Shown here in pieces: positions 37,051-56,385 of a stretch of 64,000 nucleotides of DNA; the first letter of the stretch is position 1, and each line of letters starts with the position of its first letter. The position numbers and the translations under genes were made by a program. The notes under the pieces were generated by a model. It saw only the letters and a program-made list of their open reading frames with translations, made no database searches and had not been told where the DNA came from. Source of the DNA: Lytechinus pictus (Eukaryota); contig NC_087245.1 in the NCBI RefSeq assembly GCF_037042905.1, positions 7,752,001 through 7,816,000 on the forward strand, given 5' to 3'.

Positions 37051-38810
37051 CAGGGCTCGACACTAGCGCCGGTCCGACGGTCCCAGACCGGTAAAAATCA
37101 CTGTCGGACCAGTAGATTTTCAGAAATAGCAAGATTTACTGGTCCGACATGACCAGTAAAAAATATCATTGTCGGGCCAGTAATTTTTCCAAAAATAGCA
37201 AGCTTTATGGGTCCGACATAAACAGTAATAAAAACTATTGTTGGGCCAGTAACTTTTTCAGAAATGGTCAAATTCGCTAGTCCAACATAAACATGAAAAA
37301 TATTCCATGACTCAAATTGCGAACCATTTTCCTCCCGTTAAATTCTGGCATTCACACACAGAACACACACAGAATGAATCGCATGCAATTTTTGATAGGG
37401 TAACATACAGTGTACACGTGGCTAGCCAGCCACACAGCCCACATGGTAAATTTCCTACTGGCTGCTAACGAAGCTTGGCTAACCTCTGCCAGAAATCTCT
37501 CACAGAACTGTCAAAATTCACATTTCACACTAATGAAAAGCTCTTATAATGTCCATATTTCCTAAAAATTTGCCAAAATTGGGGTAACTCTGTCATTTGA
37601 AAGCAGTAAAAGGAGAAATTTTCACTTCTGTTTTAGTTCAAAGAGATCGGGTTTCGAGTGATATTGTCTGAATACATGATAGCCCCACATATGCCTTTGT
37701 GTGTGTGTTGATACACTTGGTTTCTTTCGTAGCTAGTACTAGTATATTTTAATTGAGCCAAAAAGAAACTGATAATTTATTTATGATGATAGTTTTAGCT
37801 TTCTTCCTTTGTTTTCTTTCAATCTTTCTTTCCTTCTTTCTTTGTTTCTTCCCTCTCTTCTTTTACTGTCTTTCTTTTTTAATTTTCCCTTTTTCTTTGT
37901 CTTTTGTTCTTTCATTCTTTCTGTCCTGTTAATATTTTTCTCTATTTCTAATGCTCTTTCTTTTTTTATTTCCTTCTTTCTTTAATTCTTGAGTCCATCC
38001 ATCCTATATTTATCTCTTCTTTCTTTCTTCATTTCCTTCCTTCTTTTCCCCTTTCTTTCCTTCATTCTTTGTTACTTTCTTTCTTTCCTCATTCCATCCA
38101 TCCTTTCTTTACCCTTTCTTGTTTTTATTCCTTCTTGCAGCCCTTTCTCTCTTTCATTCCTTCCTTTCTTCTTTGTCTTTTGTTCTTTCTTTTTCCCCTT
38201 TGTTCCATCTATCCTTTTACCTTTTCTTTCTTCCTTTTATTTACTGCTTGCTTCCTTTCCTTTCTTTCTTTGAAGTTTGGTCTTTCTTTTTTGTTCTTCC
38301 TTTCATTTATTCTTTTACATTTTCTTTTTTTTTTTATATTGCTTGCTTGCTTCCTTCCTTCTTTATTCCTTCCCAACATTCCTTTTTCCTTCTATCATTT
38401 TCCCTTTTCTTGATTTCTTCCTTCTTTCAATCCTTTCTTTCTGTTTTCCTTCTTTCCATCTCTCCTTTTACCCTTTCTTTCTTTTTTTATTCCTTCTTTC
38501 CTTCTTTCTTTCAATACTTTGTCTTTTGTTCTTTCTTTCTATATTGCTTGCTTCATTTCTTTCCTTCTTTCCTTCATTCTTTTTTTCTTTTATTCTTTCT
38601 TTCCTTCCTTTCCTTCTTTGTTTTTTTTTCCTTCCTTCACATTTTTTCTTTACTTTTTTCTTCCTTCGTTTCTTTTATTCTTTCTTTTTTCCTTCTTTCC
38701 ATCTCTCCTTTTACCCTTTCTTTCTTGCTTCTTTCCTTCTTTCTTCATTACTTTCTGTCTTTTGTTTTTTCTTTCTTTATTGCTTGCATCATTTCTTTCC
38801 TTCTTTTTTT

Positions 38811-38906
<96 letters not shown>

Positions 38907-39549
38907 TCCTTCCTTTTTTCTTTCGTTCTTTCTTTCTTATTTTTGTTCTTTCTTTCCTTCCTTTCCTTCTTTCTTTCTTTAGTTCTTTCTTTTTTTCCTT
39001 CCTTCACATCTATCCTTTCTTTACCTTTGCTTTTTTCTTCCTCCCTTCCTTTCTTTCCTTCTTTCTTCATTACTTTCTGTCTTTTGTTTTTTCTTTCTTT
39101 ATTGCTTGCATCATTTCTTTCCTTCTTTTTTTTTTTTTCTTTCTTTCTTTCTTTCTTTCCTTCCTTTTTTCTTTCGTTCTTTCTTTCTTATTTTTGTTCT
39201 TTCTTTCCTTCCTTTCCTTCTTTCTTTCTTTAGTTCTTTCTTTTTTTCCTTCCTTCACATCTATCCTTTCTTTACCTTTGCTTTTTTCTTCCTTCCTTCC
39301 TTTCTTTTATTCTTTCTTCCTTTCTTTCTTTTTGTCTTTCATTCATTCATTCCTTCATTTTTTTTTTGGGGGGGGGGGGTAACAAGAAAGGACAGCAAAA
39401 TAAACTCACGCCTTTTTCTTATGTTTTCTTTATTTTTTGGGACCAGTAGATTTTAGGTTCGGACCAGTAAAAAATTGAAAAACTGGGTATCTACTGGTCC
39501 GACATGAATAGGTTGGACCAGTAGAAAAAAGGGTTAGTGTGGAGCCCTG
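37051..39549. mobile_element. Non-autonomous hAT-like DNA transposon
   Basis: 15-bp TIR CAGGGCTC.ACACTA; TSD CTTTCAC(C) of 7-8 bp; arrays of GGACCAGTA/GGTCCGAC subterminal repeats at both ends. Confidence 0.82.
37796..39367. repeat. ~1.6-kb TTTC/TTCC-rich homopyrimidine tract with higher-order duplications
   Basis: Almost only T and C on the + strand; pure (TTTC)n at ~38811-38907; block ~38730-39050 repeated at ~39051-39300. Confidence 0.95.
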
Positions 39550-41467: not shown

Positions 41468-43160
41468 TTAATGTTTTCTCTAAAGTTAAATAGCTGAAGC
41501 AAAGTACAAAGCGGCTCCCACAACCAGAAGTTTCCACTCACCCCAAGCCAGGATCCGCTTCCTGCTTACATCTATCATGTTTTCCTGTTCCAATGCAATC
41601 GTTACAGTCATTAGCCATAAGAACTGATGTAAATCAATGTTAATACCAAATTAAAACTAGTTATATGTATGGTAGGTATAGGTTCATTTTCACTTTCTAT
41701 AGATTGGGAATACACTCCAGTAATTAAGGAAGTTCTAAATAATTATCTTTCTCATTCAATTTGATCACTTATCGGTTGTATAGACAGTGAAACCAAAATG
41801 TTTATTCCCATCCAAAGTAAGCTTAATCCGAAGTGAGCAGAAAGTTTCAAGTGAGCATTTTCTTTTCAAGATAGATCAGTATTTTGACAGCAAGATAATT
41901 TATCTTTTGCTGCATGGTGATACTCTCTGTTTGAAGCATTTTGCTTTATCTCGGTTAAGGGTTAGAGTAGTTGGGAAATAAACTTTTCTAAGGGAAAAGC
42001 CGCAGTGACTATTGCTTCTTCAATGAATGCAGAAACATATGAAAGTTTGATGAAAACAATTTAAGGATAATTACAGCCTTATTAATGTCTTTATGATATT
42101 TCTAGCATTCAGTAATTTTTTTTAAGTTAGGGTGTTTTTTTAGTGGATCACCCCTCACACCCCCTTGAGATCACCATTAAAAAGTGAATAAAATGATTAT
42201 TAATTATATATAATGTTTTCCACTTGTAAGATGACTTTTAGACACCATTATAAGAAATAGACTATATGAGCTGAAATCCAATTGTTAAGTAGTAGCTGCT
42301 ACAGCATGTTTATTTACAGATCTATATAGAGGCCTAGATAAAATACAGTGAGGTTACAGGCAGGCTCTTTGATAGTATAGTATGTCAAAGGAGACTATTA
42401 AGAGCACTAGTTAGTGTTCAAATCATCACCTGATACTTTCTCTAGTATGTTCATACTCCATCCATCAAAATGATTACACATTGAGAGATTATTTGAATTC
42501 ATTTCATGTGAAAACATAAATATACATGATTAAATAGTTTGTACATAGTATGGCAGATAACCCATTGTTCTTTTTCTGTGGTCCTTTCACTTAAAGCAAC
42601 ACATGCACAATGCATCATTACAATGAATTAAAACAATGGATGACCGCTGATGATACGTAGTAGGAATTGCCCTCCATGGAGTTGATAGGTATATTAGAAC
42701 AAGTTTCTCTTTGAATGGCCATGATAGTAAGTTGATTCAAAGAGTAAAAATTTGTTTATCTGACACCATTTTCCCTGGACAACTTGAGAGTTTCGCCAAG
42801 ATTGCACATTGTGCAGAACACCTCATGCTTGAGTGAACCCCAAACTTCAAATCTTATTTTCTAATTCTCTGTATCTCCCACTGAATTTTTTTCTACATTC
42901 AATCAAGCACTTTTATGGGTTATCATTAATTTTAAAGCTTAGGATCTTCTTTTGAAACTAATCAAAATATCAATATTCATTTTAGAAGACTTATTTTTAG
43001 TTTAAGGGCGGAGGGTCACATATGAATTTGATAACAGTCTATAAACTGAAAGTACCTCTACATTTAGGGTATGTCATACAGATATGATAAGTGTTCTTTT
43101 GGTTTCTTTGTTCTTTTTCATTTGAAATTTAAAAACATTTGTATTTTCTTTCTTTTTTAG

Positions 43161-43299
43161 GCACATTCGGGATGTTACAAATCTCTAATGAGGGAGTGTG
43201 ATATGGGTCCAATCCGTGAGCTTATTATACCCCCATGGGCTGTATCCATGCCTGTTACTATGAACATGGTTAAAGGAGACATTGTATCCAGGATACAAG
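43161..43299 (+). CDS. DGKQ: DGK-theta exon: end of C1C and DGK-specific extension (AHSGCYKSLMRECDMGPIRELIIPPWAVSMPVTMNMVKGDIVSRIQ)
   Basis: tttttag acceptor; CAAG|gtaaga donor; HxxC...ECDxG..R.LIIPP extended C1 motif; phase 0 to 1. Confidence 0.93.
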
Positions 43300-44662
43300 G
43301 TAAGATTCAAACTGACCAATCACAGGCCTGACTAATGGTTAATTGACCAATCAGTGTACTGATCCATCACTAAATCATTATGTTTCTTTAATACCGATGA
43401 TGGAATAATCTTTCCTCCTGTTGCTAGTAGGTTTTAGTTTTACAAAAGTGATGAATTCATGCACAATGATGCTACATCACCACTATTTAGGTAAGATGAC
43501 TGTTGTATTTTTATCTTTTGCTTTTGTAAGTGTTTTTCATTGCATTTTCAAAAATTGAAGTGCACTTTCTTGATGTATGTATATAAATACAATCAGGCAA
43601 GCATGCTTGCTGTTGAAATGTTTCATTATTCTTTATTTCCAGTTTTTATTACTTGTTTCCTATAAAATCCTTTAATTGTATAAAATTAATCAATTGTTGT
43701 GCATTAATGATGTATAGTTATAGCCTCTTCATTTTTTTAAAAATATTTATTCTTTCTTAAGCTTATCCTTAATGTAGAATTCATCTGTTTTAGTTCATTG
43801 ATAATAACCCCTTGATTCGAAATATTTTTTTTTCTATAACCTCCTATAAAGCAAGTTTAACATACATGTAAATATTCCTTACCCATTTGCATGATGATGA
43901 ACATATTGGTTTGTTTTCCAACCTGCATATCAGCTCCCACTAAAGCTTATATACTTGATATTCTAAGCATACTTTAATGATAATGCATAACAACCATAAG
44001 ATCTGAGGGTCCTCCTTTTATCATTCATAGCCTTAACCCTGTAGCGATAGAATGAGTGTTAGATCTCACACCTTTTACCTCTACCAACAGCTGTTATCAA
44101 ATTAACCGTCAAAGTACATGTCTCCACTCCCCCTTCCACCATCAATCCCACTGTGTATAAATTGGTGTCATGAATATTATAGAGTGACCCTCGTTTAAAA
44201 TTTAGTTCAGCACTACTTATACATGCATTTATTGCGTTTGAAAAGGAATTACCAAGAATTCTTAAGTGTAGTTCAAGCAGCATAGGAATTTGGTATTTAA
44301 TTATGAGGTTTATTATTTTTTTAGATGCTTTCTTTTTTTACATCTAAATGGTGTAGTGTTATGAAAACACTGAATACAGAGGTATATGCTTACAGGAAAT
44401 GCATGTTAGTCTTTCTAAAATGTACACCAAGCATGTTTTTATCTTGTAGTTGAATTCTGAAGATTATTAAAAAGCAAATGAGGGTGGTAACTAGTAATTT
44501 TGCTATAGGATGATAAGAATACCCATATGAGGAGCAGGAGGTATATCTTCTCCCATAACCAAACCAGCCCACTTAATATAAAAAGAGTGTGCTGACTGGT
44601 CCAAGGGGAACTGACTGAACCCGAACAAGTTGACCAAGCTCACCAGTTCAGGACAAGCTTAA

Positions 44663-45215
44663 AGGACAAGTCCACCCCAACAAAAAGTTGATTGTAATAA
44701 AAACAGAAAAATCAAACAAGCATAACATTGAAAATTTCATCAAAATCGGCTGTAAAATATTATGACATTTTAAAGTTTCGCTTTATTTCACAAAACAGTT
44801 ATATGCACATCCTGGTCGGTATGCAGATGAGGAGACTGATGACGTCATCCACTCACTATTTTTTTGTATTTTATTATATGAAATATGAAATATCCTAATA
44901 TTCTCCTTATTGTCAAGTGAAACAACGATTAATTCCTCCCTGAACATGTGGAATTAGCATTGTTTAATGCTATATGGTTCAGTCAACTTGGTCCTTATTT
45001 TCAAATCTGTAAAAAATGAAATATTGTATAATTCAAACTATAATAAACAAAAGAAATACATGTAGTGAGTGATGGACATCATCGACTGACTCATTCGCAT
45101 GACACTGAGTTGTGCATATCACTGCTCTGTGAAAAATAAGTGAAACTTTAAAATGTTGTAACTTTCTTATTTTGCATCCGATTTTGATGAAATTTTTCTG
45201 GGATGGACTTGACCT
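44663..45215. mobile_element. Kolobok-like MITE family A with a small deletion in the right arm
   Basis: TTAA flanks; AGGACAAGTCCACCCC ... GGACTTGACCT; colinear with 7094-7692. Confidence 0.85.
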
Positions 45216-46085
45216 TTAAATCTTGGTGTGAAAGCAATTAATTTTTTTTTTCAAATTTAGGCCGTCTGTGCAAAGAGGTTGTCAACTTAACTGGTGTGAG
45301 CAGAGATAGAAAGTAGGCTGGTCTAACATGGGTTATGATATTACTTTTGAAGGACTTGGCATGGCCCAGTCCTTGATGTAGAAGTTACCCCTTTAAATCT
45401 TGATGGTAGTATGGAAGACTTGCATGAGAATAGTTGAATGGTAATAGCAAAGGGGTGTGTAGAAATCAGAAATCATGTAGAAATCAGAGTCTTAAAATGT
45501 TTCTTGGTTTTATTGTGCACTTTGACAAAGTCATTGTCTCATTTTAAGTACTAGTATGTAATTGAAACCCTAATCAAAATTTCCTAAAAGAAATTAGGAC
45601 TGAACTTACTGCAAAATTGACAATTCTTTCCATTAGTATTTTTAGTTCTCTTTTATATCAACTTCTAATAAACTGAACAATGCTCTTACAGTGTGATTTC
45701 ATTGTCTTCTGATTATGTTAATTTCTTTTTTTTATGGTGGAATCTAGGGTTTTGTGTGAGCCATTATGATTTGAATGTTAATGTTGAGAGTTAAGACTGG
45801 AAAAGTGATTTTCCTTTTATGGCTTTCCATTGTTTTTTTTTTTATTGTTTAGTTTTAGTTTTAACTTTCAATATGAATAAAATTTTTAATAATAACTTTA
45901 TAAGTGTGAGCAGCCACTCAAATAAACTTTTTTTTTTTTATTGTAGTTTATCCATTGCTCATGAAAGAATATTTTTTGTAGTCTTGGTTTGAAAATAATC
46001 TCCATTAGAGATAGGATAATAATCCCTGGAACTTGGAACTTTGAATATATATTTTTAGATATCAGTTCAGTTCAAGTACTTTTAA

Positions 46086-46680
46086 AGGTCAAGTCCACAA
46101 CAGGAAAATTTTGATTTGAATAAATAGAGAAAAAAATCAAACTAGCATAACACTGAAAATTTCATCAGAATCGGATGTAAAATAAGAAAGTTATGGCATT
46201 TTGAAGTTTCGCTTATTTTTCAAAAAACAGTGATATGCACGACTCAGTGACATGCAAATGAGACAGTCGATGATGTCCCTTACTATTTCTTTTGTTTTTT
46301 TATTGTTCGAATTATACAATATTTCATTTTTTACAAATTTGACAATATGGACCAACTTGACTGAACAATATATTATTTAACAATGCTAATTCCATATGTT
46401 AAGGGAGGAATTATTGTTGTTTCACTTGACAATGAGGAGAAATTCAGAATATTTCATATAATAAAATACAAAAGAAATAGTGAGTGGATGATGTCATCAG
46501 TCTCCTCATTTGCATACCGACCAGGATGTGCATATAACTTTTTTTGTGAAATTAAGCAAAACTTTAAAATGTCATAACTTTCTTAATTCATATCCGATTT
46601 TCATGAAATTTTCAGTGTTATATTTGTTGGATTTTTCTCTTTTTATTCAAATCAACTTTTTGTTGGGGTGGACTTGTCCT
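46086..46680. mobile_element. Kolobok-like MITE family A, opposite orientation to the 44663 copy
   Basis: TTAA flanks; AGGTCAAGTCCAC ... GGGGTGGACTTGTCCT. Confidence 0.85.
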
Positions 46681-47300
46681 TTAAGGATAGGGGCATATGC
46701 CACATATATTTATTTTGCAAAAGGAAAATGAAAAATATAAAGAATACATGTACAATTAATTTTCCATTAAATTTGGGATTGTTTAGTTAAGTTTTTTTTC
46801 CAACTCAGATGTGAGGTGCTTCTGACTATGTGGCATGATGTGAAAATTGTGATACTGTTTTAACCCGTTGTCCTTAATCTGAACTCACATTTAACTTATA
46901 CTGCAGTTTCCAGCTATGTTTATGGTATCAAAAGCAGACAAGTCCCTTCATGTATTATTACTACATTTACCAATTAATTGAATTAAAATTGTCTAGGAAT
47001 AAGGTAGTTGTCCCCTCTAGAAAAGAGCCCTGGAAGCATAAGAAATATTCGGTGAAAAGCATGGACTTGTGCAATGGCTTAAGTTAAAGTAGAGTTCAGA
47101 ACACATTCTCTATTTCCTAATGTAGGCATGTTATTGGTATTGTCTGGTTACTAAATTTGTTAATATTACTATTGAGTGATGTTCACATCTCATGTTCATG
47201 CATGCTCTCATTATTAACTTCTCATTGTCATTTATCAATGCTTCTCAAACATTGACAAAAACCAAAGCTCTTAAAACTGACCTGCACAATCAGCTAACAG

Positions 47301-47480
47301 AGCGGCGGCGTCGCCTGACACCACCAACGACGACGACTCCCAATGGAGCTAGGAGAGAGGCGCACTCCGCTTCCGGTCAGAAGCAGTATCTTGTGCCAAG
47401 ATTAACTCAAAGGTCTAGCAGTGCATCACCGGTCTTATCCAGATTAAAAGTCAAACTCAAACGGAGCGAATCCTTATCAA
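47301..47480 (+). CDS. DGKQ: Candidate 180-nt cassette exon, Arg/Ser/Thr-rich linker (ERRRRLTPPTTTTPNGARREAHSASGQKQYLVPRLTQRSSSASPVLSRLKVKLKRSESLS)
   Basis: GC-rich open frame in an AT-rich intron; ctaacag acceptor with weak pyrimidine tract; TCAA|gtatga donor; phase 1 to 1, multiple of 3. Confidence 0.65.
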
Positions 47481-49929
47481 GTATGAAAGAATGCTCTAAA
47501 TCAACTAACTTTTGGTTATTTTTTTTTTCTTACTAATAATTCTTGTTGTTGTTGTTTTTGTATTCAAGAATTTGATGTGCTGATGCCCCTCATGTTTAGA
47601 GTTATAAATATCACTTTTTTAGCCGAAGTAGAACTTGTAACTAAAAATATACCTTTTGACAACTTCAACTCAACATTTCATACAAGAATATTGTTATATC
47701 AAGTTAGTTAGACACAAAGAAACAAAGAGTTTCAAATTTCTCTTTCCCTCTTTGAATGTAGTTTTAAAGAATAAAATTTTGAAATTGGTATTCATTTTAA
47801 TTCAATGTTTATAAATCATTACGGGGGATATGCTTTATAAAGACTTCAATCTTTTATCAAAATTTAGTCTTGATTTTTCAAGGAGGGGGAGAATTCCTGT
47901 GTTATAGGTTGTAGGTCCCCCCTTTTTACTTTCAAGAAATTTCAACTCATTTTCACACACTTGCTGTGTTTGCAGTATACAGTGACTCTAATTGTTTTCA
48001 AAACCGATCACTAATCCATACCTTTGTCTCCTCATTTCATCTTCATATCCATTGTTTTGTAAGGTTTTATTTGTTAGTGTCAATTGCGTTTGGATACAGT
48101 AAATAAAAAAGTGTAATAGTATGAGATGAACTTGGCTATAGGATGAATAAATAACAAATCTTCTTTATTTCAAATTAAAAAAAGCAAATAAAGGTTGATA
48201 ATGATAATTAGTTATGAAAATGATGTTTAAAATATGGCTATAAAACATATTTGCTAGCTGATTAGCCAGTAGCTACCCCCTTTCCCCCAACACTCATTTG
48301 CTATTTTAATCGTGTGGACCCACACACTGTATGTCATGTCCTGCTTTAATCCACCCCTTATGTATACACATAGAGAGGGTGTCACAACTTGATTAGAAGG
48401 TATAGAGGGATGGGACATTGTCCTTAAATGACTGAGGGTTTCTTAGAAATGGAAGGAGGGCAACTGCACTGTCCTCTTCGTGTTCTTATTCATTGTTGCA
48501 AATTGGCAATGTCACTAACAGAACAGAGTCGTCTGCGACTCTCTTCTTGCATGCATGGTGCTTTCCATTGTTTTTTTTTTCATTGATTTTTTTTTTGCTA
48601 TGCAGTTTTATTTTTCAGAATTCTTCTTGACTATTATTAACAATAGAAGACACAATCATATTCTAATTTAAGTGTTCCTTTCGTAAATGATTTTCAAATG
48701 TAAAAAAAAAAAAAAAAGCCTGATTTGAATTATGATACATGTTTATTGATATGAGTTTCTCTTTTCATCTATGTATTAAGTTTACCCCCAACAATTTTAG
48801 ATTTCAAATATTTTTTTGGCATGAAATTTCACATTTTTTAAATATTAAACACTAACTCTTTACGATTAGAAGTTTTTTTTATGTTCAGTGACATATTTCA
48901 ATAGTCAGACTTTGATAACCATCAGAACTTAAACACTCTCCACCAATTCCTCCTAGAGGGAGAAATTGTAATAAACTAATACCCTGCATGGACAAAAATA
49001 TCTACTACATATATATATACTGTATGTCATAAAAAAAATATATATTTGTCATACCTCTTCAGATCTCTGTCCTACATTTCTTTTTTTTTACAGTGTTTCA
49101 TATTTCAACTCTTTATTCTCTCATGCAACATTGAGAGACACATTCAAAGTTGAATAGCAATTGCATGCCATTGCTTATATTAATGTAATTTTGTATTTGT
49201 TTGAATTTTATTTTAGTTAACAGGGATTATAATTAGTATTTGCTTGACAGTTTTCTTGACATTGAAGTGTTTCTGTAATGTTATAAGGAATGTTCACTAT
49301 TTAATAAACTACTGTTAGTACAATTATCACCACCTTATCTATATTTGCATCCTTTATCTCTTTTAAAATGTGTTTTAAGCAATCTCTCAATTTTTTACTG
49401 TGTTTTTCAAAGTATGTGTCTCTGGCTTTCCTTGTAAATTTTGTTCCATGATATAGAAAAATTAGACATATAACCTTTCAATATAGTTTAAATTTCAAAA
49501 CATATTTTTTTTTTTTTTTTTTAATATCCCGTTGCACATACACAGGCACATATACACCTGTATTTGTTAGCTCTTTGTATTCTTTTTACAGTATTTGTTT
49601 TTTTCTCACACATTTGACTTGTCTTGCCTTGAGAGAATGCTACTACTTCATAGCTTTTATCTTAAAGAAACATCTAAAAAAAGCTTGTGAAGAATTTATT
49701 GACTTTTTTAATGTATTAGTAAATAGAATTCCATAAGTGCTTCAAATGTATGGCCTGGATGGATTGTAATATTCTGCACTCAAATATGTAACCAAAACAC
49801 AGTTTTTTGTCATCATTCTTGTGAAGTTGTAGTATTGTCTAATGTTGGAGATAACAACTTTAAGTGGTATTTTATTAATTGTTTATGTGAATGTCTGCAT
49901 TTTTTCATTATTTCTTTCACACTCCTCAG

Positions 49930-51015
49930 ATTTGTTGGCCACTACACAAAGGAATAAAAACTACCAGAATCTAAAAAACTCCCGTCATAGTCTAGACTCC
50001 CTAACCCTCAGTACAGCCCCTTCTATCTCTTACACTAAATCCCCAGTCCCATCGTCAGGTAGCCCCTCCTCTTCTCGATCATTAGATCCATCCCCCACCC
50101 ACCGTTCAAAGTTGACACTCCCCCACCTAAATCCTGTCAGTAAATCCCAAGGGTCATCTCCGACATCTCCTAGAACCCTGTCCCCAAGCATCTATCTTCC
50201 CAAGTCCTCCTCACCCACTAAGGGGCCGAGACCGAAATCAGCTGTCCCTTGCATGCAATCATCCTCTAAGGGATCCAGTGGCAAGATGAAGCCATCTAAA
50301 TCTTTTGATGGAGGTCTTACCTCTCCTGATGTCTTCTTCTCCTCTAAGCCTACCTCCCTGTCTAATCCTCACTTGTCTGAACCAACCCATGAGGAGGCAG
50401 GCTCTGTTAAGCCCACGTTACTCTCACAAGCCTTACCCTTGCTGAATAAACACAAAACTGGTGAGAATGATTCTGAGGATTTGAACAGTTCAGCCATGAC
50501 CAAAAACCAAATATCAAACAACAATCAAAGCTCATTATCAGGTGGTATTATGACTAATACAAGTGCACACTCTGCTTCAAATGCTGCAGCCCCTGTCACT
50601 TCAAACATGGGTAGTATGTCATGTTCACACACCCCAGGTAGTCAAGATTCCCAAACCATGGAAACACTTGACCCTTCCTCCAGACCTACTAATGGCATAG
50701 GGATCTCTGATTCTGTAACCCCATCAGAAGCATGTTTTTCTCCTGGGATGATGGTTCTTTCTCCTTCCTCCATCTCTAACCCTAGCCCCCCTCCCACCCC
50801 GACCATAGCACCTATACCAACCCACCCCCCTCTTACCCGTACATCTGTGTCAATGTATCGATCCAAGGGGCAGCGATCTGCCTCCGAGTCTGGTTTCGAC
50901 CCAAGCACCCCTGATTTTGGTGATGGTGATAGTGATGATGATGGTGATGCATGCCTACTGCAACGGAATGGAGCAGTGCGGGGCAGGCCCCTGTCTACTC
51001 AAATTATCTGTTCAG
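49930..51015 (+). CDS. DGKQ: Large 1086-nt exon encoding a 362-aa Ser/Pro-rich low-complexity linker
   Basis: Core of ORF 49842-51191; ctcctcag acceptor in phase 1; TCAG|gtcttt donor (weak, phase 1) where coding-like composition ends; in frame with flanking exons. Confidence 0.75.
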
Positions 51016-54000
51016 GTCTTTACAATTTTCTTCCCTTTCATACGTTTCAATTACCTTTAGCATGCATGCATGATTTCATCCTGTACAATCCTCATTCAGT
51101 ACACTTATTGCATGACCATTTCACAAGGAAAGAAAATGCTCTTGCTATCATTTTATATTCTTGCTCCATTGCACAGTCACATTTATTATGAAATTACCTG
51201 CATTTATATTTTGTTTTCTCATTTTGTGTTTGTGGATACATTCTACTCTCCTTTGTTAATGTATCCCCTCTCTCTGTAATTGTTTTCATATTTTGTTGTT
51301 TCTTTCTTTGACTTCATTCCCCCATTTCACTGTAATACCCTCTTGTAGTATCTCTCAACCAGCTCAGGTCTGAAAACATGATGCAAGTTACCTACTCATA
51401 ACCATGTCATTTATGAATTATGTTTTATATGCTCATAAGTTCTTAATGATATAATCTTTATTGTTTTTCATCATTCCAATTGCTGCTTTGAAAAAAAGAA
51501 ATTATGCAGGTGCATTCAAGGTGCCATCCAGTTTATGTTGAAGGGAATAAAAGAAATTCAATATACCAGTATATATCAAGACCCTGAATGAAATAGCTGG
51601 GATAATGCTCACTGTTTCTTTATTATTGTAATTTAATATTTACGACGAAAACTTGAAAATATGCAGTTTACATGGTATGAAATATTAAGTAATTTATTTA
51701 AGAAAAAAAATAAACATTGGCCTTTATGTTGAAATGTAATTTTTCATGAAAAATCTTGGCATGGTCCATTAGCTTTGGATCCAAAATTTTCTGAGAATTT
51801 ATTCTATATTTTGACAGAAATTATTTTTAAAAAGAGAAAAATCATGTGAATATGATTATTCAGACTGAATCATGTAATATAAGAACTGAAGATGATTGGA
51901 TTGGTTACTTTTTAACAGAAATCCCCTTAGAAAATCTTACTTGTTGAATTTGCATATATTGAAAAAAATATATTATAGAATATGTCACTCCCATCAGTAT
52001 GATCAAGTGACCTTGAAGATGTACATATTTGCATTGAAATTGAATAATATTAAAAGCTGTTTTACTTCTCTTGAACACTAATTCTAAATCGGTGAATAAA
52101 CTATATGAATCTTTATTGTTTTAAAGCCTGTTTGATGGTTTAGGAATTTCATTCATGGTCTTGACCCAAGTTATAATAGTAAGTAGAGACAGAGATGGAT
52201 AAGAAAAATGATGTAAAGCAAAAATAAATTACATCATAATTGATTTCTTTGTCTGAAGTACATGTACATGAAATGTTCAGTCCTATAAACTTCCTGCCTG
52301 GTGTTTTATCGGTCACTTGTCATTTGAATGTATATTCAGAATGAGTTTGAGACTGGGTGGAGTTGTCATAATATTTGCATGCTATACATCTTTTGTTCAG
52401 CTTCTCATGGCCTTGTATTCATTTGTTTTTTTTATTTTCTGTCAGCTGGTTCTATATAATGTTTGCGTTCTCATATTCATATTGATTTTTCATATTTCAT
52501 TTTGAGTTTCTCTCATGTGTAATGCGTTTTTATTATTGCTTTGATGCATTTGGTGGACAACTGTCATTTCATATTGCATTTAAATTTATTTACACATTAT
52601 TTTTTAGGTGTCTCTATGGTTATGAGTTTGTTTATTTATATCCAGTTTGCTTGTATATTTAAATTTGGTTTCAATCGCATATAATGTTATGCTTTATTTT
52701 TCTTTGTTTTCCACACTAATGCTTTAATGTTTCATGCAGATTATTAACAAAATTGCATTTTAGAATATGAAAAAATCTGTGTTGTTGCAGTATAATGAAA
52801 AAAAAATTAATCTCACTAACCTGAAATAAATAACTTACCACTTCTCTTTTTTTCTTTCTTTCTGGTTTATCTCATAATTATTTTTGTTATTGTTGTTGTA
52901 GCTCCTTGTCATATTCATTTCAAACTGTATAAGGCTTATGAAATTCATATACCATCACTATGGGTTTAATAATTGTATCATTCTATAAAGTGTACATGTG
53001 ATTTTGGCTGATTCAGATTTTGGAAATGATCTTGCTATTATACACATGAACTCACAAGTATTGACAACAAAGGGAAGATGGAGAAATATTAGACAGTGCT
53101 AACTTAAGAATACTTGTTGATATTGAGAATATGTTATAAAGAAAGAATAACATTTTCTCTCCAAATCTAAATATTTTCCTCATTTCCAAAATGATATCCA
53201 TAGTTACATTACAATTAAGAGCACTGTACAGCTTACATTGACATCAAGATACAGGGGCATATAGAGAGAGTATTCAAAGAATTGACAAAATACAGGAAAG
53301 CTTGCTGCATTATTGGGATATGTATGAGTATTTTATCAATTGGGTGTTACATCATTTCACTCCTCCGTGATCAGTAGTTTGGGTGTATTATTACCATTGT
53401 TTATTTAACATTGTCTTTCACAAGAGCAGAATTCATATTGTAAGTGATATCCATGTTTATTGCTTAATTCATTTGTTGGGAGAAAAATCAAGGATAATGT
53501 ATTATTATTTCATTTTCTTGAAAATAATCACATATACATGTATAATCTGTTATTATTTTCCTAACCATTAACTTTTTTTTCTTTTCAATAACATTACAAA
53601 TTTTTCTTTCATTTGATTCAGTTTGTCAATGATGTTCACAAATGTTATCATTTTACATATGGTTTTTATAACTGCATTCATTATAAATGCCAAAGAATGT
53701 TTTAAGAGCTACTCTACACTTTACATGCTGATACTCTTTATTACACTTTTATATCATGATATTCCGCTATGAATTTTGAACTAGAATAATGATTTGATTT
53801 ACAAAATCTTTCATGCATTGATTTCAGTATGCGCCATTGTAATTCTTTAAATATATTCTACAATTGTTAACAATCTAGAACATGATTTTCCAAAATGATC
53901 AGCAATTACAAATTTCTTTATAAGTTCTGTAGAATTATATTATTATTTTAAGTCTTTTCCATATTTTAAGATATATTAAAGTGTATTTTATGGCTAGGTT

Positions 54001-54326
54001 TCAATTGTTATTCTTGTGTCTCTTAAAGATTGAGGATCTTATGATTCTTTTTCTTTCCCAAAACCATATAGTATTTCACTGTTGGTGATAGATTTGAAAA
54101 AATATAATAATCACAGGAATATTAATTTACATGTATCAACATAGACCCTTATTCTTGATATACTTTGAATGTGATATATATAGTATAATTTCAAATAATA
54201 CGTGTACATCCAAAGAATAATTCTCATAATAATTATAAGAATAATTATTAGCACTGACTCAAATGAATATATGGGTTTTCTTGATGAAAGTTGATATTAA
54301 TTTATGAATATTTTGTGTGTTTACAG

Positions 54327-54395
54327 ACTTTATAGGTTCATCTGCACAAGATGGAAACTCTGATCTTAGACTCAAGGAGGAATATGGTTCAGAAG
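54327..54395 (+). CDS. DGKQ: DGK-theta exon, linker (DFIGSSAQDGNSDLRLKEEYGSE)
   Basis: tttacag acceptor; GAAG|gtgggt donor; 69 nt, phase 1 to 1. Confidence 0.75.
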
Positions 54396-55226
54396 GTGGG
54401 TGGGATTCTAAACAGTATTCAAGAATTTATGATTAAAACAAAATCAAAATTTAGATTAGAAACTGAAGTGTTAAAAATGCAGCTCTTGAGCCTGTATCAT
54501 TTAGACTTACAATTATTCTAATTCTGTCATTATTGTTGCTACCATTGAAGTCTTGATTGTAATTGGCTGCTGAGTCCTGCTAACATGATCATTGTCTAAA
54601 TGGCAAATTTACCAGTGTTGCACCTCTCTACAGGCCTCTTGTCAGACTTACATATATGTATAGCCTATCAGATCAGATTATCATTAAGTCATATTCCAAT
54701 CAACTATAGATGAAATCCAATATTTTTAGATTAAATTCTCTGTGCTAACATGTCAAGATTTGAGTAGAGTTATAGAACTGACCTCCATTATGTTAAAACA
54801 AAATATTTGGGGTATCTTGTATATTACATGAAATGTAACCAGTTTTTTTGTAAAATATTGTGAGTAACTTAAAAGAGTTTATGAAATGGCCCTCAGTATT
54901 AATAGGATGTCTACTTGGTGAATTGGTTAGCACATGGCAATCTATAAAAGCGTAGTCTTAATTAATATCAAGTTAACTTTCTATGAGAAAAGCAATCTTT
55001 GTACCACATTCAGATTACACCAGCCAATGTGGAGAACCTCTCGACAGAATTTTCAATTCTTTTAGGTGATCCCCAGGCATTGGCTGGTGCTCAATTTTAC
55101 ATTTCTTTTGTAATGTTTCTATTGCTGTCATGTTTTCTTGCCTGGAAATGAAATAAATAAATAAAAAAAATAAAAATGAAATAAATAAATAAATTTGTTG
55201 AATTATACGTATATTCTATCTTTCAG

Positions 55227-55327
55227 ATGGTCATTTAGTTCGATTGTTTGATGGACCAGCCTCTCTAGAGAAAGGTTCATATCATCTCATCTGTGTTGCC
55301 AAGGATACCACCATGAAACAGCTGACA
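55227..55327 (+). CDS. DGKQ: DGK-theta exon, first RA/ubiquitin-like region (DGHLVRLFDGPASLEKGSYHLICVAKDTTMKQLT)
   Basis: tttcag acceptor; ACA|gtaaga donor; (V/I)xxFDG motif typical of DGK-theta; phase 1 to 0. Confidence 0.88.
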
Positions 55328-56303: not shown

Positions 56304-56385
56304 GAAACGGCAATGAGGTCATTTTACATTGCTGACAATGCTGCTCTATACTACCTCACAGAAGTAGCAGAATCAGGTCAAAACG
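56304..56385 (+). CDS. DGKQ: DGK-theta exon (ETAMRSFYIADNAALYYLTEVAESGQN)
   Basis: T-tract and cag acceptor; AACG|gtaaat donor; resembles the AALRAFHI...YxL segment of DGK-theta; phase 0 to 1. Confidence 0.88.

Follow-up and report, generated by a model that had tools for sequence, protein, structure and literature searches.

The 64,000-nucleotide (nt) stretch of Lytechinus pictus DNA analysed here (contig NC_087245.1), called the window below and numbered from its first letter, carries on its + strand most of the gene for diacylglycerol kinase theta (DGK-theta), the type V DGK, whose kinase activity is predicted from its domains. Isoform X1 of Lytechinus variegatus aligns exon by exon to positions 12092-61391. 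The three C1 domains (PF00130, three stretches in L. variegatus X1 and X5), the two RA domains (PF00788) and the RBD-like domain (PF24099) are encoded by exons within the window, and the catalytic (PF00781) and accessory (PF00609) domains are present in the RefSeq proteins, their exons lying past the window end. RefSeq splits the L. pictus gene over 12092-43299, giving a record of 154 amino acids (aa) with C1 sequence and the models X1-X4, which begin at an internal Met in the exon of the third C1 domain (C1C). Despite this split, the window itself carries the exons of 12092-43299 in order.

Between the C1C exon and the first RA exon lie two conserved alternatively spliced exons, named A and B, followed by an apparently constitutive exon, C. 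The features discussed below are the following.

43161-43299, + strand: exon ending C1C, with a phase-1 donor, upstream of the module (joins, splice scoring; read depth in 3/3 raw RNA runs)
47268-47480, + strand: cassette exon A, 213 nt / 71 aa, net charge +11, weak acceptor (exact in L. pictus X1 and X3)
47301-47480, + strand: 180-nt version of A, from a possible second acceptor (open frame; matches 0/19 records)
47426-47479, + strand: conserved basic end of A, SPVLSRL, then a K/R-rich part and last a Ser cluster (alignment)
49930-51015, + strand: cassette exon B, long form, 1086 nt / 362 aa, 42% S/T/P, without a Pfam family
49930-50460, + strand: exon B, short form ending at the inner donor, 531 nt / 177 aa, basic half with net charge +15 (exact in L. 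pictus X3 and X4; also in L. variegatus X3)
50784-50840, + strand: proline-rich block of 19 residues in B, invariant in Lytechinus, Strongylocentrotus and Diadema
50946-51014, + strand: final 23 residues encoded by long B, invariant in three genera, with weakly predicted docking to the core
51063-51114, + strand: three TGCATG hexamers just 3' of the B donor, a lead only
54327-54395, + strand: exon C, 69 nt / 23 aa, apparently constitutive linker exon (in 19/19 records)
55227-55327, + strand: first exon of the first RA domain
46750-54450, no strand: stretch with introns in which the genome search detected no dispersed repeat

The joins made from the window are letter-for-letter identical to RefSeq L. 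pictus DGK-theta X1-X4, and the insert-free join is found exactly in L. variegatus X5 and in Strongylocentrotus purpuratus X6. In our isoform table of 19 urchin records, which are gene models and as such predictions, exon A is present in 10 records and exon C in all 19, and exon B is full in 11, ends at the inner donor (50460) in 3 and is absent from 5 (L. variegatus X4 and X5, S. purpuratus X5 and X6, Diadema antillarum X1). A sequence-only reading of this DNA had proposed three exons, at 47301-47480, 49930-51015 and 54327-54395, that can be combined freely. The exons are indeed there, multiples of 3, bounded by AG and GT and with an open phase-1 frame; the phase is the same on both sides in each of A, B, short B and C, and the nine combinations that were built are all open, so that the frame is kept as had been claimed. 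The first exon is modelled as 213 nt rather than 180 nt: A starts at 47268 in 9 of the 10 records containing it and none of the 19 has a join at 47301. The cassette found at the place of A in Diadema is of 60 aa, and the 47301 acceptor may thus also be real, a second and older one. That reading also missed the 531-nt form of B, and its free combination of three exons is unsupported because C is never absent. The module is composed of two cassettes and an alternative donor, which add 0 to 433 residues (the sequence-only reading had counted up to ~445), followed by a constant linker exon. As for the long isoform, taken to be possibly undescribed, it is RefSeq X1 in L. pictus, L. variegatus and S. 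purpuratus. The models P0005 and P0006, of D. antillarum and D. setosum, differ in the central part of exon B by ~95 residues, through a deletion or an internal intron.

The two acceptors of A are the weakest of those scored, with pyrimidine fractions of 0.48 and 0.52 vs 0.62-0.95 in the other exons scored, and the weak acceptor ascribed to this exon from the letters is confirmed. The weakness ascribed to the donor of B is only partly specific: it scores 6/9, with a non-consensus sequence on its intron part, and three other exons, A among them, have donors of the same score. TGCATG, an Rbfox-type motif, occurs 39 times in the window, with at least three copies in 8 of 1274 overlapping 300-nt windows; the trio sits 48-94 nt past the outer B donor, and surfaced in a scan of 6 motifs over 7 regions, which makes it a lead only. 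Upstream of the A acceptor, the frame of A is open over 47180-47267 and contains two Met codons, where an alternative start is possible (depth 0 in 4/4 runs). Two donors 9 nt apart, at 56376 and 56385, are also found at the second RA exon, and the 3 residues that distinguish S. purpuratus X1 from X2 correspond to them.

Reads were mapped over 43050-47700, in 4 of the 21 listed runs and with ~6 in 100 of the reads of each raw run. In the three raw RNA runs, which come from one study, the C1C exon bins reach depths of 1.35-8.92 on the expected strand, vs 0.5, 0 and 0 on exon A, a dip that is not a finding. A run of contigs, which is guessed to be RNA, places one record (depth 26) on 43160-43299 and another (depth 8.95) on 47265-47480; the latter continues for 30 unmatched letters, and its first three letters are common to the end of the upstream exon. 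The start and the tail of this contig suggest joins at 47268 and 47480, with the proviso that contigs cannot prove ends. Low-depth contigs (3-7) lie over the intron at 43767-44541, in run X1 only, and could be nascent RNA or DNA. A search of sequencing runs with exon B returned no run recorded as RNA (14 guessed RNA, 4 unknown, 3 by species label), which is not evidence.

The supplements (3 and 4) of a study of Esrp by Burguera et al. (2017; PMC5703972) list a 207-nt exon of S. purpuratus DGKQ, SpuEX0006702, as Esrp-silenced (class ESRP_DEP-SIL). Its percent spliced in (PSI) is 21.95/18.68 in controls and 33.33/28.36 after Esrp knockdown, in 24-h embryos. As the difference between S. purpuratus X1 and X4 amounts to 69 residues, those of exon A, this is very probably the same exon as A, on the grounds of its gene and length. 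The terms searched brought up no entry for exon B in these supplements. In the same source, both S. purpuratus DGKQ gene records drop upon Esrp knockdown (log2 -0.70 and -0.63), and mouse Dgkq has an Esrp-dependent retained intron, going from 31.65/27.19 to 51.22/52.14 (supplements 3 and 6). Among 6 pentamers of our own choice scanned as GU-rich Esrp motifs, only TGGTT/TTGGT was found, at 5 places. The frame-preserving alternative splicing proposed by the sequence-only reading is supported for A and B, which alternate in the models, and its regulation for A, Esrp-listed by length match; for C, present in 19/19 records, neither is supported.

Exon B as the sole query retrieves six proteins, all DGK-theta, from Lytechinus, Strongylocentrotus and Diadema, and Pfam has no family in A, B or C. 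The AlphaFold model of L. pictus X1 has a predicted local distance difference test (pLDDT) below 50 over residues 54-466; the insertion point is already a low-confidence linker in the insert-free form (226-255), and order-promoting residues make up 0.20 of the insert vs 0.36 of the short protein. The insert is thus a predicted disordered region with short conserved motifs and a biased composition, which agrees, at the level of prediction, with the disorder guessed from the letters. Exon B, with 42% S/T/P, has 15 SP/TP sites, 4 RxxS/T and 5 PxxP, and the motifs RRRRLT and KRSES singled out earlier are present. Identity to Diadema is 39% for A, 59% for the first half of B, 41-48% for its second half and 100% for C, the latter being identical across 5 aligned urchin proteins. 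The middle of B aligns poorly; seven runs of at least 7 residues are nevertheless invariant out to Diadema, including the proline-rich 19-mer and the final 23 residues of B. Basic sequence makes up A and the first half of B, and acidic sequence the second half of B (net -9); the L. variegatus insert has a net charge of +10 for A, +24 for A with short B, +3 for long B and +14 for A with long B. Two opposite-strand frames over exon B, of 118 and 58 aa, were taken as shadows.

The same hinge varies in other animals. The distance from C1C to RA is of 51-176 residues (median 90) in 188 non-urchin proteins vs 64-497 in 20 urchin records, and isoform records differ by hinge inserts of their own in starfish, brittle star, sea cucumber, crinoids, hemichordate, nemertean and insects. 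The cassettes adjoining C1C are net basic, from +3 to +9, in 3 starfish, a brittle star, 2 crinoids and a hemichordate. Among cluster representatives, of which 150 were listed, the linker was measurable in 17 of the 44 examined; one protein, P0218, whose closest named relatives are insects, has a linker of 461 residues at this place, unrelated to urchin B (best E 1.5). Urchins are therefore not the only animals with a giant insert at the hinge, rare as such inserts are.

The A and B inserts likely have some regulatory function. The whole is, in our opinion, best explained if the optional exons add 0-433 predicted-disordered residues to the hinge and tune membrane binding or activation of the enzyme via basic, phosphorylatable segments, to which we give a probability of about one half. 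Weak acceptors would cause A to be skipped most of the time, and Esrp would lower its inclusion further, directly or not. B would be chosen among skipping, the inner donor and the outer donor, perhaps with the aid of the three TGCATG hexamers. The insert would lengthen a flexible hinge and leave the folded domains untouched. Mammalian DGK-theta is activated by polybasic proteins, synaptotagmin-1 giving a 10-fold effect (PMC9095502), and for this reason A and short B might act as a tethered polybasic patch, directed at acidic lipids or at the activation site of the enzyme itself. The second half of B, acidic and rich in proline, would offset this patch, as in long B alone, and add docking motifs, and phosphorylation of the adjacent Ser clusters could switch the patch off or modulate it. 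That charge is how A and short B act on DGK-theta activation is a more tentative proposal, reached by analogy, than the reading as a whole.

Several observations weigh against this explanation. The role proposed for A and short B is derived from their net charge, and kinase stimulation is a prediction. The basic residues are spread out, the best 15-residue window reaching +4 to +6, and only 5 alignment rows cover the insert behind its low pLDDT. In other animals, the charge is not consistently basic: the second crinoid and hemichordate cassettes are at -3, one sea-cucumber cassette is at +1, insect inserts are about neutral and the P0218 linker has a net charge of -2. On the side of splicing, the RefSeq evidence for isoforms is made of predicted models, and the five L. 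pictus records that were retrieved never skip B. No junction row was displayed for 43050-47700, where repeat-derived rows filled the joint and loose-end tables, and the read mapping covered the C1C-A stretch, exon B lying outside it. SpuEX0006702 was matched to A by gene and length, not by sequence, its shift is of ~10 PSI points, and many indirect Esrp targets are expected in sea urchin by the authors of the study (PMC5703972).

The inserts could alternatively be a scaffold or phospho-switch, whose conserved blocks bind partners and relocate the enzyme, the net charge being incidental. The invariant 19-mer, the Ser-rich blocks and the phosphorylation and PxxP motifs counted in B are consistent with it, as is the translocation of human DGK-theta to the membrane once G-protein-coupled receptors and PKC are activated (PMC12673472). 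The partners are hypothetical, however (SH3/WW-type proteins or phosphoserine readers), the motif counts have no composition-matched background, and there is neither a Pfam family nor a usable Atlas match (best score 0.83 for B). We hold this explanation to be rather unlikely.

It is more improbable still that the last 23 residues of long B fold onto the RA/RBD/kinase core or act in a pseudosubstrate-like manner, with use of the inner donor removing a brake. These residues are invariant in three genera and contain an R-x-G-A-V-R stretch, which resembles PKC pseudosubstrate motifs; a strand is predicted at 466-473 in the L. pictus X1 model (pLDDT ~42), and the short-form fold has no strand where the end of B would sit. 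The predicted complex of residues 440-475 with 478-1130 scores 0.48 (runs 0.48/0.63/0.18) where the best of 3 controls scores 0.02, with a contact agreement of at least 61% and a partner pLDDT of at least 40, which is weak support. The mark used for complexes is reached by 51/78 solved and 2/108 mismatched pairs, peptides and disordered chains being outside this calibration, and at scores of 0.60 or less by 5/78 solved complexes but by all 4 passing mismatches, the range in which the present score falls. Furthermore, the peptide included 5 residues of the constitutive exon C, which are possibly the docking part; the last 27 residues of B have 0 matches in the PDB at E up to 10, the conserved end of B has no usable Atlas match, and its invariance could reflect a DNA-level constraint at the donor.

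That A and B would be functionless exonisations, tolerated in a flexible hinge and in frame as out-of-frame versions were purged, is very improbable. The recurrence of unrelated inserts at this hinge in many animals, the poorly aligned middle of B and, for what a dip of this kind is worth, the low read depth on A fit such an origin, but the invariant blocks and the exon ends shared by four to five species of three genera do not, nor do the measured inclusion of ~20%, responsive to a splicing factor (in the length-matched S. purpuratus exon), and the repeat-poor introns. The least credible version is that of three freely combinable cassettes in an undescribed, 445-aa-longer isoform, which has for it the open combinations and the 60-aa Diadema cassette and against it the constancy of C, the 180-nt join seen in no record and the identity of the long isoform with RefSeq X1.

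When the DNA around the exons is considered, the introns at 46750-49900 and 51020-54450 have no match in the 812-Mb genome other than themselves, and both of two control intron stretches contain dispersed repeats, with the reservation that two controls are few and that the repeat search skips very common words. The observation that no transposons are recognisable across ~46.7-55 kb, unlike the rest of the gene, agrees with this for these introns but extends too far: an older repeat family, with copies 70-88% identical, is present at ~54478-54653, and a ~160-nt repeat of a young family, with copies 94-99% identical on many contigs, at 55017-55190. A high-copy repeat is present twice between the C1C exon and A, in opposite orientation (~44610-45230 and 46015-46790), and reads from other copies pile up there on both strands; the two copies could pair in the pre-mRNA. 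A 1.5-kb low-complexity tract, made only of pyrimidines, is located at ~37780-39350 on the + strand.

Directly past the C1C donor, at 43313-43353, are two copies of TGACCAATCA 31 nt apart, a motif which we take to be of CCAAT-box type; the pair occurs 11 times in the genome vs once for the control. An ATG opens at 43451-43490 for 13 codons and 1 nt, up to a 7/9 donor in phase 1. As a weak lead, 43313-43490 may hold an internal promoter and the first exon of a DGK-theta form without C1 domains, although the 43451-43490 pattern is also found at 30 of 317 background positions, the depth is 0 in 4/4 runs and CpG is low. S. purpuratus X3 extends by 20 codons into the start of the C1C intron and has IQTDQS in common with the frame of the window, and the DNA at the intron start thus looks conserved. 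A pattern scan of metagenomes for urchin DNA of this intron start gave 7 matches, which were all chance ones of 20-24 nt without DGK sequence.

The A/B isoforms are already known, as RefSeq models and, for exon A, through the published table (by length match), and the gain in annotation is small, one exon having a published inclusion value. In the literature searched we found neither a functional study of echinoderm DGK-theta isoforms nor a report of the function of A and B or of the recurrence of unrelated inserts at one hinge across invertebrates; other supplements and splicing databases may hold exon B. If the basic exons do activate the kinase in cis, the isoform series, with net charges of +0, +3, +10 and +24, would be a test of polybasic switching of DGK-theta, an enzyme with a role in synaptic vesicle recycling. 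The PDB search gave 28 matches, limited to C1-domain relatives and one RRM protein, without any DGK-theta structure. A wider and quite unlikely extension would be that the C1C-RA hinge is a splice-controlled slot across invertebrates. In urchins, A and short B would be a cis activator, in place of the polybasic segment that partners such as synaptotagmin-1 bring to mammalian DGK-theta, the second half of B and its invariant end would dock on the core and damp it, and Esrp acting on A and an Rbfox-type factor on B would set the diacylglycerol-kinase gain by cell type, the isoforms then revealing an unmapped polybasic activation site.

When compared with known systems, the window has the same exons and combinations as the RefSeq DGK-theta models of L. 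pictus (X1-X4), L. variegatus (X1-X5), S. purpuratus (X1-X6) and Diadema; the L. pictus models differ from the window in being devoid of C1 domains, the gene being split in two records, and none of those retrieved skips B. SpuEX0006702 belongs to the same gene and is, at 207 nt or 69 aa, the orthologue of A by length, known as a table row (PMC5703972). The inserts occupy the same C1C-RA position as the hinge cassettes of other invertebrate DGK-theta proteins, which are unrelated in sequence and, with the exception of P0218, much shorter. In Caenorhabditis elegans, dgk-1 has a cell-type-specific isoform, which is regulated splicing of a DGK-theta gene as proposed here in urchins, but the alternative 3' splice site is reported beside stop codons and is not a hinge insert (PMC12084633). 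Mammalian DGK-theta, of which splice variants are described as "reported but not characterized" (PMC12673472), has three C1, two RA, RBD-like, catalytic and accessory domains as in urchin, and the human protein, of 942 aa (PMC12673472), is close in length to the insert-free urchin forms of 945-953 aa. The activators of the mammalian enzyme act in trans (PMC9095502), whereas the basic segment of the urchin enzyme would act in cis.

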